From a virus (Duplodnaviria > Heunggongvirae > Uroviricota > Caudoviricetes): a stretch of 9,273 nt of DNA. Under the pieces are notes generated by a model. That model ran no database searches and was not told the origin of the DNA. It was given only the letters and a program-made list of their open reading frames with translations. Each line of letters begins with the position of its first letter. Position 1 is the stretch's first letter. The position numbers and the translations under genes were made by a program. Shown one piece after another: positions 2,770 through 9,273 of this stretch. The stretch spans positions 1 through 9,273 of IMG/VR virus record IMGVR_UViG_2531839476_000009, one strand, 5' to 3'.

Positions 2770-3264
2770 TCAAAACAGCCCTTTAACGGAGCTGGCCGCG
2801 CTGTTAAGGGATGATGTGACCTTATCTTTGAAGCCGGACAGCATATCACTGAACGATGAGGATTGCAGGCGCTCCCGCAAATCCTCATCACAGCGTTCAA
2901 GGGTCAGTGAAAATTCTATCTTTTTCGCCTTACCGTAGCGATCAAACTCGGAACGGGTCGTATTCGTTCCAGTCAGGACATACATGCCGTAAATCTGCCC
3001 GACGCCATCAATCAAAGGCCAGGGTCGTCCTGTATAAGCCTGCGTGGTCAGCAGCGACAGCGACACTTCGCCACCTGTAATTTCAGGATAAAGCACACCA
3101 GAAAGAACGATGCGATCATCACCTGCACCGATATACTGCCAGCTTGCTGAACGGTTAATGCGTTCATTTTTCACATGCCGCCAGCTTTTGTTTTGCTGTA
3201 ACTGCTGATGCGGCAGCGTGCGCAGCTCAAAAACAAACATGCCGTAGATCATCATCATGGCCAT
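2770..3264 (-). CDS. Tail protein gpU-like
   Basis: 164 aa. N-terminus ...MMMIYGMFVFELRTLPHQQLQ...SWRH... and ...IEFSLTLER... resemble P2 gpU. Lies immediately downstream of the tape-measure gene. Confidence 0.9.
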   Translation of the reverse strand: MAMMMIYGMFVFELRTLPHQQLQQNKSWRHVKNERINRSASWQYIGAGDDRIVLSGVLYPEITGGEVSLSLLTTQAYTGRPWPLIDGVGQIYGMYVLTGTNTTRSEFDRYGKAKKIEFSLTLERCDEDLRERLQSSSFSDMLSGFKDKVTSSLNSAASSVKGLF

Positions 3265-3270
3265 GACTCC

Positions 3271-6086
3271 TCAATCTTTATCGTAAAAACTGCCACGCCC
3301 GGCACGGGCGCGCCGTTCCATTTCTGCCCTGACCATTTCACCGACCAGTTTCGCCAGTTCGCGGGGATTCTGCGTAACAACGTTATGCAGATGAACATGA
3401 ATTTCACCACCAAATTCGGAGGCAACAGGCTCCCGGTTACGGGAAGTTACAGGAACTGATGCCACTGGAGATCGTATAGCCTCCGCCACCGGGCGGGAGC
3501 TGGCCGCAACAACAGTGACCAGCGCCGGAGGCAGCGGAGCCGGGACCACGGGTGTGATATTAATTGCGGGGGCAGGCTTACTGACCTGCGCAATCTTCCG
3601 CTCCTGCCACTCCCCACGAACAGCAAGTGCGCGGGGCAGGTTCTTAAAGACAATATCGCCGGGGCCAATGCGTTTTTTCGTCTCATCAACCAGCTTACCT
3701 GTGTTATCAGCAATTTTGCTGAGTCTGCGTAGCGTCCCGGTATTGCTGTCTGTGAGCGGTTTGTTGTCTTTGGGTTTATCACCTCCGGTGCCATTGCCAT
3801 TTTCCACAGGCTTCGGCGGATTGATTTTCGCAAGGTCCCCCTGAAGCAAGGCAACCTTGTCCTGAAGAATGGCCGCACGCTGTGCGTCTTCGATTTTCTT
3901 GCGCGCCTTTTCCGCTTCATCCGGAAGGACGCCAAGTTTTTCAAGTATCCACGCCAGCGTATCCAGTAGCATTTTTGCAGGTGTCAGAACAAGCTGTAAC
4001 GCACCGCCAAGAACGTTACCGAATATCTCGCCAGCACTGGTACATTTATCCAGCGTTTCCTTGCTGGACTCCATCGGTGACAGCAGCGATTTAAACCAGT
4101 TAAACACCTGGCTGATCCCGCTTCCGATTGCGTCAAAAACAGGACCAAACCGTTCAAAGGTTTCGCGCAACGGGGTCAGCCTTTCCATAATCCCGCTGAA
4201 CACCCCGGCAAAAATGCCCTGATGGGATCCCAGTATTTCCAGATAAGAACGGCAGCTCCGGCAAGCGCAGCCACGATAAGACCAACCGGACTGAACAGCG
4301 CCCCGATAGCGCCTCCCAGTAAAGAAACGGAACCCGTCACCATTCCCCATAGTGCTGGCAGGACCCTGACAGCATTCATTGATCCGGTCAGGAGAGAAAA
4401 ACCAAGACGCAGTTTTGCCAGCGGACCAGCAAGCACACCAATAGCCAGCGACAACGAGCCAACCGTTGCAGTCATTGCCAGCAACGCACCGCCTGCTATC
4501 AGTAGCTGGCGCGTCAGTGCCGGATGGGCCTGCGCCAGCGCCGTCACCCTTGATACCACCCGCGCGAGCCACTGCGTGACAGAACGCAGCGGACCGTCAA
4601 TCAGATCTGCAATGCGGATGCGCAACCCTTCCCATGCACTGCCGAGTGATTTCAGATCGCCGTCAAGGTTGTTGGCCATAACCTTTGCTGTGCGTTCAGC
4701 CTCACCGCGCGCGCCTTCAAGTTCTTTTCTCAGTTTGGGTAAGGAACCGTCACCCGCTGCATCAACGAGCGCCATAAACGATGTGAAAGCCTCTTCTCCG
4801 GCAATGTCCTTAAAGAACGATACCCGGTCAACTTCCCCGTATTTGCGGGTGGCTTTATAAAGGTCGGCCAGCACATCCTCCATCGGGCGCATTTTGCCCC
4901 CGGCATCCGAGACGGACACGCCCAGCTCTTTCAGAGCTTCTGCCGCCGCCTTTGGCGGTGATGCCAGACGAGCCAGGCTGGCACGCATTGCCGTCCCGGC
5001 ATCACTCCCTCTGATGCCCATATTCGCCAGCACGCCAGCCATCGCTGCGGCCTGCTCCAGCGATATTCCCAGCTTACCCGCCACCGGACCTGCATATTTC
5101 ATGGTTTCGCCCAGTGCGCGAAGGTCAGTGTTGGTACGGGTAAACGCTGCGGTGAGTGTGTCACCGACCCGGTCCATCTGGTCAGCAGAAAGGCCGAACT
5201 GCGTCAGGATATTTGAGCCAATATCCGCCGTCTCGCCGAGATCCATGCCGCCAGCCGTTGCCATGCTCAGCACGCCCGGAAGCGCAGCCTGAATGGCCTG
5301 CGGTGTGAAGCCAGCCATTGCAAGAAATGCCTGCCCACTGGCGGCATCGCCTGCGGTGAACTGCGTTTCAGAGCCAAGTTTTAACGCCTGCTCACGCAGC
5401 GCCTTAAACTGCGGGCTGTTCTGGTCGATTCGCGTCAGTGCCTGAACGCGGGACATCTCTTTCCCGAACCCGATCGCAGGCTGCAAAAAACGCCCGGCAG
5501 CATAGCCGCCAGCCGCTGCCGCACCAATTGCCAGCGCACCACCTGTTTTCAGTTTTCCCGCGGTTTCCTGCGCGCGCGAATACCGCTCACGCGCCCGCGT
5601 TACACGCGCAAGCGCCTGCCGTTCGCGTTCAAGCTGGTTGTTGTACTGTTCGGTGCGTCTGATGGCCTGCTGGATGGTGTTATCGCTGCCTGTCAGGGAA
5701 ATGCCGTGGCGTTTCAGCTCTCCGCCAAGCTCCCGCATTTTCTGAATTTCCCGTGTACGCGATTCATTCAGGCGTTCAAGCCGGGTGCTTAACTGCTGCA
5801 TCAGCTTTTGTTGTTTTTCGCTGAGCACTGTACCCGTGCGTTGTAACTGATTAAGGGCGTTAAGCTGGCGTCGTGCTTTCACGACGCCAGCATCCGCTTT
5901 ACTGACAGCGTCGCGGGCGCGCTCAAATGATCGCGCCTGACGCTCGAGATTTTTGATCGCCCCCTGCGTTCGCTGGATGGAGTCACCAAACTGCCCCATC
6001 AGGCGGCGGGCGTTTTCGGCAGGTCGGGTCAGCCTGTCAACGGCGCTGAAAGCGACCCGGATATCAAGAGTCTTCATTGTCTGCAT
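3271..6086 (-). CDS. Tail tape measure protein (gpT-like); reading frame interrupted by a 1-nt frameshift near 4210-4214
   Basis: Two overlapping ORFs (4176-6113 and 3271-4572) in different frames. Both carry tape-measure-like sequence; the upstream piece ends in a hydrophobic segment and the downstream frame only reads sensibly from about 4200. Start is probably the ATG at 6086 or 6077, overlapping the E' stop; the track start at 6113 is a GTG. Confidence 0.85.
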
Positions 6087-6593
6087 TCCCGCTGCGAAGT
6101 GCCGCCCGCTCACGCCAGCTAACCACTTCGCCGGGCGTCATCATGAAGATTTCGGCGGGCGACCAGTTAAAAATGGCGGCAATATCCGCCACAAAGTCTT
6201 CTATGTGCTCAAAGCACACAACCGTGATCAGGCTTCCGTCGCCTGTTCGTTCTTCCCGCCAGAGTCCGCACCGCTCAAAAAATTTACGGCAACCACACAT
6301 AACTGAATAAAGTCACGGGATGCCATTTTTTTGATCGTCACTTCATCCAGTCGCGGTGATGTCACGCGTGACAGCAGCGTAAACATGGATTCCGCTTTCA
6401 GATTCAGCACATCAGACAGCGACAAATCTCGCAGAGATCCAGCCTGCTCAATAGCCCCGGTGATCTCCACATACGTGATTTTTTCGCCGCCTCGCTCAAT
6501 GGGTTGGGTAAGTTTTACGCCACGCTCACTGGTTTCTTTCACAGTGTCAGTAACTACCGTGTTTTCGGTATCGATGTTTTTCGTCTCTTTCAT
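6064..6593 (-). CDS. gpE+E' tail assembly chaperone fusion produced by programmed -1 ribosomal frameshift (about 176 aa)
   Basis: E ORF (6228-6593) and E' ORF (6064-6300) overlap with E' in the -1 frame. The slippery heptamer T TTT TTG sits in the zero frame inside the overlap. Position is immediately upstream of the tape-measure gene, as for P2 E/E' and lambda G/GT. Confidence 0.7.
6228..6593 (-). CDS. gpE-like tail assembly chaperone (non-frameshifted product)
   Basis: 121-aa ORF with SD aaggag 8 nt upstream of the ATG, located between the tube and tape-measure genes. Confidence 0.85.
   Translation of the reverse strand: MKETKNIDTENTVVTDTVKETSERGVKLTQPIERGGEKITYVEITGAIEQAGSLRDLSLSDVLNLKAESMFTLLSRVTSPRLDEVTIKKMASRDFIQLCVVAVNFLSGADSGGKNEQATEA
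6276..6282 (-). promoter_or_regulatory. Slippery heptamer T TTT TTG for the E/E' -1 frameshift
   Basis: Minus-strand sequence aaT TTT TTG agc read in the E frame as N-F-L-S; after a -1 slip the E' frame reads F-F-E-R-C-G-L. Confidence 0.7.
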
Positions 6594-6614
6594 CAGGAAA
6601 CTCCTTTCAGTCAG

Positions 6615-6647: not shown

Positions 6648-7159
6648 TCAGCCAAGCCCAAGCGCGGAACGGATGCGATCGGGCACAATGTCCTTGCCGT
6701 CCTTCCGGTAGATGTGGTTCAACAGGTCGATTTCCCACAGCGGGCGATCGTTAACGCTCAGCTTGTAGTAGGTGTTTTTGACAGCGTAAGTGTGTGATGT
6801 GGCTTCGCCCTGTTTGGCTTCCCCCATATCAATTTCCGTCACACGCCCGCGCATCTCGATTTCATACAGATCGCTTTCTGCATCGGTGTAGTATTCACCC
6901 GCAAAACGCAGCAGCGTGCCGTCAATCGTGCCGCCATACTTAAGGAACAGCTCACGAACTGCGCCCCCCATGACAAAGCTCGCATCAAGCGCGGAGTCAT
7001 CCAGGCCGAGATCAATACTTACCGCTCCCATCATGCCACACCCCGGTAGCTGTCGGTTTTGCGCGTCAGCTTAGGCAAAGTGACGGACGTCACCTTACCC
7101 ACTTCGTTTTCACCATCCACAAACAGCGTAAAAAAGCGAAGATGTTTTGGCACAGCCAT
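6648..7159 (-). CDS. Tail tube protein (FII-like); reading frame interrupted by a 1-nt frameshift near 7038-7045
   Basis: The 128-aa ORF (6648-7034) contains ...DLGLDD...LRFAG...EIEMRGR..EIDMGEAKQGE..., resembling P2 FII but without its N-terminus. The missing N-terminus (MAVPKHLRFFTLFVDGENEVGKVTSVTLPKLTRKTDSYRG) is encoded in another frame, starting at an ATG at 7159-7157 that overlaps the sheath stop (TGATG). Confidence 0.85.
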
Positions 7160-8343
7160 CAGGCACCTCCCAGCACCGCAAATGCGGGGCCAAAGAATTC
7201 ATCAGTAAACGTCTGGTAAAGCTCCATGTCTTCCAGCGGGGGAACAGGCGTATATTTGTAGCGAATACGCACACGCCCCTGACGTAAATCCGTGGTGCTG
7301 TTATCCACCACGTCATACCAGCACTCCGCGCCAATCAGTTTCCCGGCAGTAACCAGTGAATCCAGTTTTGCCCTGATGGCACTGATAACATCCTTCACGT
7401 TCGCAGGCGTCAGTGGACTGTCGATGGTTTCAAACTGCGCTTCCGCAATTGAATCAGCCAGCACCTGTGCGGTTCGGGTATACACCTCAAAGATGTAGGC
7501 GTTCGTTTCCGGTGTGCGGTTGCCCCAGAAGCGGAACCCGTTGCGACGAATAATGGTCGTGATTTCTTTGTTGTTGAGGCTGTTGGCATCGCTGTCTTCG
7601 GCCTGCAACGACCAGAACACTTGCCTCGACATCCCCAGCACATTTTTAACCGGAACGTTGGACAGTGATTTGTGCCACCCCTGCTCAATGGTCAATGTAC
7701 GCACGAAGGCCGCACGCATAAGCAGGCGCGGGGAACGTTCGTTTTTGCCACTTTTCGGGTTGTAGGCGATGAAGTCCGGCCATAAGAGCATCACCTCACG
7801 TTCGTTGAATTTCTGGCGGTAGGTAATCGCCTCAGCCATCGTGTTACAGCCGTGACAGGAGGCATACACAAACGCGCGCAGTTTACCTGCAATCACGCAC
7901 ACGGATTTTGTTACCGCCTCCGTGTCCAGCTCCGGCGCGGCCAGAATACGCGGACGGTATCCGATGCTTTCATCCTGCTCTGCAACAAGCAGCGCATACA
8001 TCCCCGTATAGCTGCCGTCATCCTCAGAACCACCGATAACCAGTTGATCCTGCGTTTTTCCGTCTTCTTCTTTGTGTTCAGCCACGCGAACGACGATCAC
8101 CTTTGTGCTCACCTGGTCTGCGATGGCCTTAAGCGCACGATAAAGCGTCCCCGTTGTTCCGCATTTTCCCAGCACGTCATTGACGCGGGTCAGCAGTGTG
8201 GGCTTGTTCAGCGGGAACAGCTCCGCGTCCGCATCATCCGCCGTTGCCACGATACCGATAACACTGGAATCAACATCATTAATCGCTGTTACCAGGTCGG
8301 TACTTTCCGTAACACGGGCACCATGAAAACGAGTTTCACTCAT
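7159..8343 (-). CDS. Tail sheath protein (FI-like)
   Basis: 394 aa. Motifs ...FPLNKP..., ...RILA.P.LDT..., ...LLWPDF..., ...EQGWHK.LSN..., ...IRRNGFRFWGNRT..., ...YTRTAQV..., ...YKYTPVPPLE... resemble P2 FI. SD aagggg lies upstream of the ATG. Confidence 0.95.
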   Translation of the reverse strand: MSETRFHGARVTESTDLVTAINDVDSSVIGIVATADDADAELFPLNKPTLLTRVNDVLGKCGTTGTLYRALKAIADQVSTKVIVVRVAEHKEEDGKTQDQLVIGGSEDDGSYTGMYALLVAEQDESIGYRPRILAAPELDTEAVTKSVCVIAGKLRAFVYASCHGCNTMAEAITYRQKFNEREVMLLWPDFIAYNPKSGKNERSPRLLMRAAFVRTLTIEQGWHKSLSNVPVKNVLGMSRQVFWSLQAEDSDANSLNNKEITTIIRRNGFRFWGNRTPETNAYIFEVYTRTAQVLADSIAEAQFETIDSPLTPANVKDVISAIRAKLDSLVTAGKLIGAECWYDVVDNSTTDLRQGRVRIRYKYTPVPPLEDMELYQTFTDEFFGPAFAVLGGA

Positions 8344-8500: not shown

Positions 8501-9241
8501 ATGACCGACACCACCATGCAATTGCTCAGTCAGGGCACAGACCCCGTGAAAATGCCGGATTTTGATATTCTCGCGGAGGGTAAAACGCTGTCAGGCGTGG
8601 CAGAGCGCCTGATGAGCCTGTCACTGACCGACAACCGGGGATTTGAAGCGGACCAGCTCACCATCACGCTGGATGATGCGGATGGTCAGTTGCAGCTACC
8701 GCCACGGGGCGCGCGCCTGACGGTTCTCATTGGCTGGAAAGGAGAACCGCTGACAGAAAAAGGCACTTACATTGTTGATGAAATCGCTCACGAAGGACCG
8801 CCGGACAGGCTGACTGTTTCAGCCAGAAGCGCAGATTTTCGGGATGAATTTAACGTTAAACGTGAGGTGTCCTGGCATGATGTGACCGTTGAGCGTGTGG
8901 TATCCGCCATCGCTCATCGGTATGGTCTGAAACCGCAAATCAGCGAAATGCTGATGGATATCGAAATCGACCACGCCGACCAGACCGAAGAAAGCGACAT
9001 GTCCTTCCTTACGCGCATGGCGGAAATGCTGGGCGCAATCACCACGGTAAAAAGCGGTAATCTGTTATTCATCATGCCCGGTGGTGGCGTGAACGCACAG
9101 GGCCAGCCGTTGCCATCGTTCGCCATCACACGCAGCAGCGGCGATCGCCATCAGTTCCGCATTGCTGACCGCGAGGCGTATACGGGGGTACGCGCTTACT
9201 GGCTTGATCTTAATTACGGGAAAAAGAAAAAGTCAGCGTGA
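8501..9241 (+). CDS. gpD-like tail protein (late control gene D family), N-terminal 246 aa; possibly truncated
   Basis: ATG at 8501 preceded by SD gggaggg. Motif ...LSLTDNRGFEADQLTITLDDADGQLQLPPRGARLTVLIGWKG... is typical of gpD/VgrG-type N-terminal domains. The in-frame Met at 8369 in the ORF track lacks an RBS. Confidence 0.8.
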   Translation: MTDTTMQLLSQGTDPVKMPDFDILAEGKTLSGVAERLMSLSLTDNRGFEADQLTITLDDADGQLQLPPRGARLTVLIGWKGEPLTEKGTYIVDEIAHEGPPDRLTVSARSADFRDEFNVKREVSWHDVTVERVVSAIAHRYGLKPQISEMLMDIEIDHADQTEESDMSFLTRMAEMLGAITTVKSGNLLFIMPGGGVNAQGQPLPSFAITRSSGDRHQFRIADREAYTGVRAYWLDLNYGKKKKSA

Positions 9242-9273
9242 AACGCCGCAAACCGCCAAAACCGAAAAAGAGA

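Follow-up and report, generated by a model that had tools for sequence, protein, structure and literature searches.

The window, by which the whole analysed stretch of 9,273 nt is meant, contains a row of phage tail genes, those for sheath, tube, E, E', tape measure protein and U (Table 1). E and E' are located between the tube gene (PF04985, 7159..6648) and the tape measure gene (PF10145, from 6077), on the same strand as both. By homology to phage P88, ATG 6077 is the start of the tape measure gene, which shares its first 14 nt with the end of E'. The segment 5900..6750 showed 98% DNA identity to the Escherichia phages 500465-2 and P88 and 87 to 88% identity to Xuanwuvirus P88_4B11 and Citrobacter phage Shae_phiSM, all of them Peduoviridae, and over the approximately 7.1 kb that were aligned to P88 the identity amounted to 95.8%. 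The closeness extends to the locus itself, as gpE of phage 500465-2 is identical to that of the window and the sequence AAATTTTTTG is likewise unchanged in P88 and 500465-2 (Xuanwuvirus and Gemsvirus). Judged from its sequence, the window is the tail module of a P88/500465-2-like prophage of the Peduoviridae.

Table 1. Features of the tail module and of the E/E' junction in the window.
Feature	Position	Strand	Basis and remarks
Serine invertase	2144-2743	plus	PF00239 (resolvase)
gpU	3264..2770	minus	PF06995
Tape measure gene (T homologue)	3271..6077	minus	PF10145, P88 annotation; directly downstream of E'
Tape measure ORF as listed	6113..4176	minus	PF10145
Whole E+E' gene, predicted to be recoded	6064..6593	minus	176-aa fusion from -1 slip
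E' extension, -1 frame (predicted)	6064..6276	minus	from re-read G 6276 to stop 6066..6064; translation
ATG-started -1-frame ORF, 78 aa	6300..6064	minus	ORF list; 73-nt overlap with gpE
Slippery heptamer T_TTT_TTG	6276..6282	minus	X_XXY_YYZ phase of gpE frame; homologous to annotated P2 site
Second heptamer A_AAT_TTT	6279..6285	minus	in phase, overlaps the first, one codon upstream; alternative or additional slip position
gpE, zero-frame putative tail assembly chaperone, 121 aa	6228..6593	minus	ATG 6593, stop TGA 6230..6228; ORF list and translation
gpE Shine-Dalgarno sequence AAGGAG	6601..6606	minus	sequence read; anti-SD duplex -8.2 kcal/mol (background mean -2.35)
Tail tube gene (FII homologue)	6648..7159	minus	PF04985; adjoins gpE upstream
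Tube C-terminal fragment	7034..6648	minus	PF04985
Sheath gene	8343..7159	minus	PF04984, PF22671 and PF17482 domains
gpD-like hub gene	8501-9273	plus	weak PF05954 match, below cut-off

The gpD-like hub gene is located on the opposite strand and is divergent from the sheath gene. The same placement is found in P88. P88-like phages differ in this from P2, where D follows U in the FETUD operon: their gene D is situated past the sheath gene and on the opposite strand.

The original prediction had described an E' frame which overlaps E by 73 nt in the -1 frame, a heptamer T TTT TTG in zero-frame phase within this overlap (6282..6276), a position just upstream of the tape measure gene and, as the consequence of a slip, a fusion of about 176 aa alongside the 121-aa gpE. 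Recomputed coordinates, frame and phase agree with all of this; translation across the slip gives exactly 176 aa, and the order tube, E, E', tape measure is that of P2. With its first T, the heptamer takes up the last base of a zero-frame AAT codon, which results in the phase AA[T TTT TTG]. If no start codon is demanded, the -1 frame is open from 6312 and the overlap comprises 85 nt. The extension would add 70 residues to the gpE part, or 71 if the slip occurs on the second heptamer A_AAT_TTT (6285..6279). The latter was absent from the original prediction; with it, the window reads GT[A AAT TTT] TTG. The Shine-Dalgarno sequence in front of gpE is the only ribosome-binding site for both E and E+E'.

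In phage P2, TTTTTTG is the site of the programmed -1 frameshift from which E and E+E' result (Christie et al. 2002, cited in passages of PMC3091744 and PMC5009743), with an E protein of 91 aa and an E+E' protein of 142 aa according to the passage on P2 in PMC3091744. In the GenBank record of P2, E is listed with 91 aa and E+E' as a joined CDS, and a site is designated '-1 translational frameshift', at which the sequence reads GG[T TTT TTG], so that heptamer and phase are identical to those of the window. The proposed correspondence to P2 E/E' was confirmed by alignment: in a BLASTP comparison, the predicted fusion matched the annotated gpE+E' of P2 colinearly and from end to end (E=3e-25, 31% identity), including its N-terminal gpE part. 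The junction V-x-F-L falls in the same alignment column in both proteins, and the in-phase T_TTT_TTG of the window is thereby located at the P2-homologous column.

The E' extension was recognized by the Pfam family PF06528 (Phage_P2_GpE) with 44.6 to 46.9 bits at a cut-off of 23 bits, a match obtained for all 5 of the 5 aligned fusions, and PHROG 1756 covers residues 103-174 of the fusion (E=8e-39). For gpE itself, PHROG 103 ('tail protein') was found with E=2e-35. The family PF10109 (Phage_TAC_7) scored 17.2 bits with the gpE of the window, which is under its cut-off of 25 bits; it matched 4 of 5 aligned relatives (best E=1.4e-12) and is carried by database relatives with approximately 50% identity. 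NCBIfam gave no match for E or the fusion, and a PDB profile search with the fusion alignment returned nothing at E<=1.

Beside the heptamer, its phase, the junction column and the PF06528 extension, the locus shares with P2 the position between the tube and tape measure genes and the overlap of the E' end with the start of T. It differs from P2 in the length of gpE (121 versus 91 aa), in the distance from the heptamer to the stop codon of E (54 nt versus 27 nt) and in the additional overlapping heptamer A_AAT_TTT. The similarity to G/GT of phage lambda is found in the two overlapping ORFs between the major tail or tube gene and the tape measure gene, and also in the RNA stimulator, which is usually absent in the G/GT-type class; the slippery sequence of lambda is a different one. 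A frameshift in the tail chaperone genes is conserved in long-tailed dsDNA phages (Xu, Hendrix and Duda 2004, as summarized in passages of PMC5009743 and PMC3091744), and the site is kept in other P2-like phages according to the passage on P2 in PMC3091744. The efficiency of P2-type frameshifting was given as 2- to 3-fold above that of lambda G/GT (PMC5009743). The two products of lambda arise in a fixed, low ratio; they bind to the tape measure protein and are not found in virions (PMC5009743).

The heptamer by itself is weak evidence. TTTTTTG occurs three times in the window at an expectation of 2.8, and a further in-phase T_TTT_TTG is present inside the tape measure gene (5484-5490, minus strand), so that the motif alone is not diagnostic and the case has to rest on homology and conservation. 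For an overlap of 28 codons, the chance expectation amounts to about 0.1 for any in-phase X_XXY_YYZ and to about 0.002 for TTTTTTG.

To follow the site through related elements, species-representative genomes and IMG/VR were scanned with a fusion alignment, which yielded 160 loci. The scan loci, fetched phage and E. coli chromosome records and the window together gave 147 distinct E/E' junctions, and 139 of these possess an in-phase slippery heptamer in the overlap, a count that includes variants shifted by one codon. T_TTT_TTG was the only heptamer at 74 distinct loci and was accompanied by a second one (CCCTTTT, AAATTTT, GGGTTTT and others) at 25. TTTTTTA, TTTTTTC or TTTTTTT variants without TTTTTTG were present at 12 loci, A_AAT_TTT as sole heptamer at 9 (the sister Xuanwuvirus clade, AAATTTTATG) and C_CCT_TTC as sole heptamer at 19 (Klebsiella Reipivirus-type). 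Among the 8 junctions without any heptamer are contig ends, symbiont copies with visible degradation, variants in the length of the T run (L100 and L118) and a high-GC locus whose ORF boundaries were not traceable. A loss of the heptamer in related elements, which had been named as an argument against the original prediction, is thus not what the family displays.

The conservation is concentrated on the run of T residues. Among 59 representatives with less than 88% identity, the six T positions showed an entropy of 0 to 0.12 bits, whereas the flanking positions mostly ranged around 1 to 1.7 bits. The first T was invariant in 59 of 59 representatives; in the codons looked at (Asn, Gly, Pro), it occupies a third position, and its replacement would leave the amino acid unchanged. 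The retention of the site at the homologous column of relatives shows that it is non-random.

Codon periodicity was analysed in an alignment of 22 sequences of the window-type clade. In the overlap, the third position of the -1 frame was the most variable one (entropy 1.18 versus 0.81 and 0.85 bits), and downstream of the E stop codon, where E' alone is coding, the same periodicity was observed (1.42 versus 0.52 and 0.74). The -1-frame periodicity begins right after the slip site, and a conserved peptide, G-W..ER.GDG, is encoded in the overlap stretch 19 codons upstream of GTG 6219. Comparative sequence data therefore indicate that the -1 frame is under coding selection from the slip site onward.

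These data also bear on the question whether E' is an independent small gene, translated from GTG 6219 into a 'GpE family phage tail protein' of 51 aa. It is annotated in this way in P88, 500465-2, P88_4B11 and RefSeq chromosomes of E. coli (as a CDS of 156 nt in P88, 500465-2 and RefSeq), but both the periodicity and the G-W..ER.GDG peptide set in 19 codons before this start codon, at the slip site. Moreover, no Shine-Dalgarno sequence is present: the anti-SD pairing was -3.5 kcal/mol at GTG 6219 and +0.6 kcal/mol at ATG 6300 at a background mean of -2.35 kcal/mol, compared with -4.3 to -11.5 kcal/mol at real gene starts in the window. The start is not kept in other clades. In place of ATG 6300, the sister clade has a codon for Val, and the P2 record joins the homologous frames into one frameshift product. 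Because of the background-level pairing and the unconserved ATG 6300, independent initiation of E' is extremely unlikely. Neither a functional ribosome-binding site and start of its own nor a lack of homology to frameshift-extension domains, both of which had been regarded as speaking against a frameshift, could be attributed to E': the computed pairing of its candidate starts is at background level, and its extension matches PF06528.

A second way to join the two frames would be transcriptional slippage, in which an additional U is inserted by RNA polymerase at the T6 run, so that part of the mRNAs encode E+E' in a single frame. The site is a homopolymer, run-length variants occur in assemblies (L100 with T7, L118 with T8), and a few single-ORF fusion proteins are on record. 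Six T residues are short for efficient slippage by the RNA polymerase of E. coli, though, which counts against such a mechanism. Furthermore, the clades with interrupted T runs (TTTTATG and TTTCTTG) keep a phased X_XXY_YYZ heptamer one codon upstream. Codon phase is irrelevant to a polymerase, and its retention in these clades fits tRNA re-pairing and not homopolymer slippage. As the phase of the run is also fixed in 139 of 147 loci, transcriptional slippage is considered very improbable.

In two relatives from IMG/VR, L100 (~1740) and L118 (~1782), seven and eight T residues, respectively, were found at the slip site in place of six, and the T7 run of L100 places E and E' in one continuous ORF. 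The T run of the slip site is an indel hot spot in assemblies. In the window, the run has the same length, six T residues, as in intact phages.

Another homopolymer, an A7 run in gpE (6333..6327, minus strand, ATC AAA AAA ATG), was considered as slip site and rejected, because its phase does not correspond to X_XXY_YYZ and because, in the window, a stop codon follows in the -1 frame after 5 codons. The sister clade has an open -1 frame from the A7 run onward. Some database proteins (P0003-P0005, including a cluster of 15 members) are single-ORF fusions that switch frame at the A7 run (...IKKNVVTRFYSV...); these are probably homopolymer assembly errors.

In consideration of the homology and the conservation, it is highly probable that a P2-family (P88/500465-2-like) prophage recodes its tail assembly chaperone gene at this site to give E and E+E', and a programmed -1 mechanism in this lineage is supported by homology and strong comparative evidence. 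Ribosomes would start at the single start codon of gpE (ATG 6593 with the Shine-Dalgarno sequence AAGGAG), and most of them would terminate at TGA 6228 and release the 121-aa gpE. A minority would slip one base back on the U-rich sequence A-AAU-UUU-UUG (6285..6276) and read the -1 frame to 6064, which would result in the 176-aa E+E' protein, composed of the gpE N-terminus and a C-terminal Phage_P2_GpE domain. In analogy to lambda G/GT and P2 E/E+E', gpE and E+E' may serve as chaperones of the tape measure protein during tail assembly, present in a fixed ratio and not incorporated into the virion.

In the window, either or both of the overlapping heptamers may be used. The two alternative fusion products are of equal length and differ in one residue at the junction, with ...VNFFER... 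expected from A_AAU_UUU and ...VNFLER... from U_UUU_UUG; the predicted tryptic peptides of the junction are DFIQLCVVAVNFFER and DFIQLCVVAVNFLER, respectively. The distribution among the clades differs: P2-type loci carry U_UUU_UUG, the P88_4B11-type only A_AAU_UUU and the Klebsiella Reipivirus-type only C_CCU_UUC. It is possible, though somewhat less likely than not, that the upstream A_AAU_UUU, with AAU in the P site and UUU in the A site, is the main slip position in the window in place of U_UUU_UUG, the homologue of the P2 site. A_AAT_TTT is the sole heptamer in the Xuanwuvirus sister clade with AAATTTTATG (P88_4B11 and Shae_phiSM, 9 distinct loci), and the 19 distinct loci of the Klebsiella Reipivirus-like clade possess only C_CCT_TTC at the same upstream position. 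Reporter experiments in E. coli fit an upstream slip as well: A-site tetramers ranked A_AAG >> U_UUC > U_UUU, with U_UUG only 1.8- to 3.6-fold above background, and H_HH.U_UU.Y is among the efficient heptamers, whereas U_UU.U_UU.G is missing from that E. coli list (PMC4066793). On the other hand, in most of the family, including P2 with its mapped site, T_TTT_TTG follows GG, GC or similar and is the only heptamer, none being located upstream. As both heptamers are intact in the window, the sequence alone is compatible with a slip on either one.

Equally tentative is the idea that the tandem overlapping heptamers A_AAU_UUU and U_UUU_UUG act together without an RNA or Shine-Dalgarno stimulator and that the slip codon has moved by one between clades. 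If this holds true, the gpE family would represent a natural series for the drift of a frameshift site during which the ratio of E to E+E' is maintained.

The original prediction had proposed to look for a stimulatory structure downstream of the site, and here no conserved element emerged. Folding of the 60 and 80 nt after the heptamer was no better than that of shuffled sequences (z = +1.2 and -0.8), and RNAalifold with 22 diverse relatives gave -0.18 kcal/mol and no structure up to a distance of 70 nt from the site. Longer downstream spans reached z = -2.0 to -2.5, which is due to hairpins located at least 55 nt downstream; these were rejected as stimulators, being too far away to act. An Rfam scan of the window yielded no family at the gathering score. 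A conserved downstream stimulatory structure is consequently rejected on the basis of the shuffles and RNAalifold. This agrees with the report on P2, for which the passage in PMC3091744 describes a site without a downstream hairpin. Upstream of the heptamer, no SD-like stimulator was found in the window, the anti-SD pairing of -2.2 kcal/mol corresponding to background.

Just past the stop codon of gpE, approximately 55 nt after the slip site, a hairpin of 19 nt (UGUGUGCUUUGAGCACAUA, 6202-6220, minus strand) was observed. P88_4B11-type sequences share this hairpin, clades further away lack it, and no covariation was seen in it; it is probably a side effect of the codons for V-C-F-E-H-I.

The E genes of the P2-type contain an SD-like sequence, AAGGUGG, which ends about 4 nt upstream of TTTTTTG (L004, i.e. 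P2, 665-678, and 27 other loci). Its anti-SD pairing is -8.4 kcal/mol in P2 and -6.6 kcal/mol on average across the 28 P2-type loci, compared to a mean of -3.7 kcal/mol for the window-type loci, which lack AAGGUGG, and -2.2 kcal/mol for the window. The AAGGUGG of the P2-type loci may be a frameshift stimulator or may merely reflect the coding sequence for G-K-V-(V/I)-G.

The E/E' junction is not the only frame break in the window. In comparison to P88 and 500465-2, deletions of 1 nt in short runs were detected at ~7038 in the tube gene, at ~4214 in a T run of the tape measure gene and at ~9226 in gene D, and the reading frames of these three genes, which are intact in both phages, are broken by these window-specific single-base indels. 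The sheath gene contains a deletion and an insertion 50 nt apart (7737 and 7687), which compensate each other and leave about 17 codons re-framed. Nonsense mutations or larger deletions were absent from the approximately 7.1 kb aligned to P88. The original prediction had set the E/E' break apart from the others because of its canonical slippery site, and this distinction stands, as the others are window-specific 1-nt homopolymer deletions: the E/E' break is the designed one. The analysis thereby separates one intended frame break from homopolymer deletions that are specific to the window.

Because of the 1-nt deletions in the tube, tape measure and D genes, the copy in the window may be defective or mis-sequenced. 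The indel pattern could be caused by homopolymer sequencing errors or by early decay or pseudogenisation, both of which fit equally well. If the prophage copy is defective, the frameshift signal might be intact but idle, with E+E' not made or not useful. The three deletions and the indel pair of the sheath gene relative to P88 and 500465-2 would fit this, as would the observation that all 13 fetched relatives holding the exact stretch around 7038 are intact there and none shows the tube deletion. However, each lesion concerns a single base in a homopolymer or short run, for which a sequencing error is an equally good explanation, and the T6 run of the slip site has kept the length found in intact phages. 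An idle signal is regarded as rather unlikely.

The formation of two chaperones, E and E+E', from one start codon is well-known biology of P2-like phages and, beyond annotation, a textbook case. The main value of the present analysis is the correction of annotation: E and E' are better recorded as a single gene with recoding, whose two parts meet at the slip site, after the example of the P2 record. In the records of P88 and 500465-2, E' is a separate CDS of 156 nt and no frameshift is annotated, and the P88 paper does not mention a frameshift. Under the name 'tail protein' or 'GpE family phage tail protein', public records treat E' as a gene of its own (156 nt, 51 aa), and gpE is filed as 'hypothetical protein' or 'tail protein' in records of P88-like phages and RefSeq records of E. 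coli. Neighbouring genes carry questionable labels, too. The tube gene is designated 'head closure' in RefSeq phage records, and the record of Shae_phiSM gives the sheath gene as 'late control gene D protein' and leaves E' unannotated.

At the other end of the window, 18-nt inverted repeats were found at 207-224 and 2062-2079, which are 94% complementary and share the core TTGGTTTGGGAGAAG. They bound a segment of approximately 1.85 kb with oppositely oriented tail-fibre C-termini and tail-fibre assembly genes, and this segment adjoins the serine invertase gene. The arrangement of inverted repeats, segment and invertase looks like a host-range switch of the Gin/Cin/Pin type.
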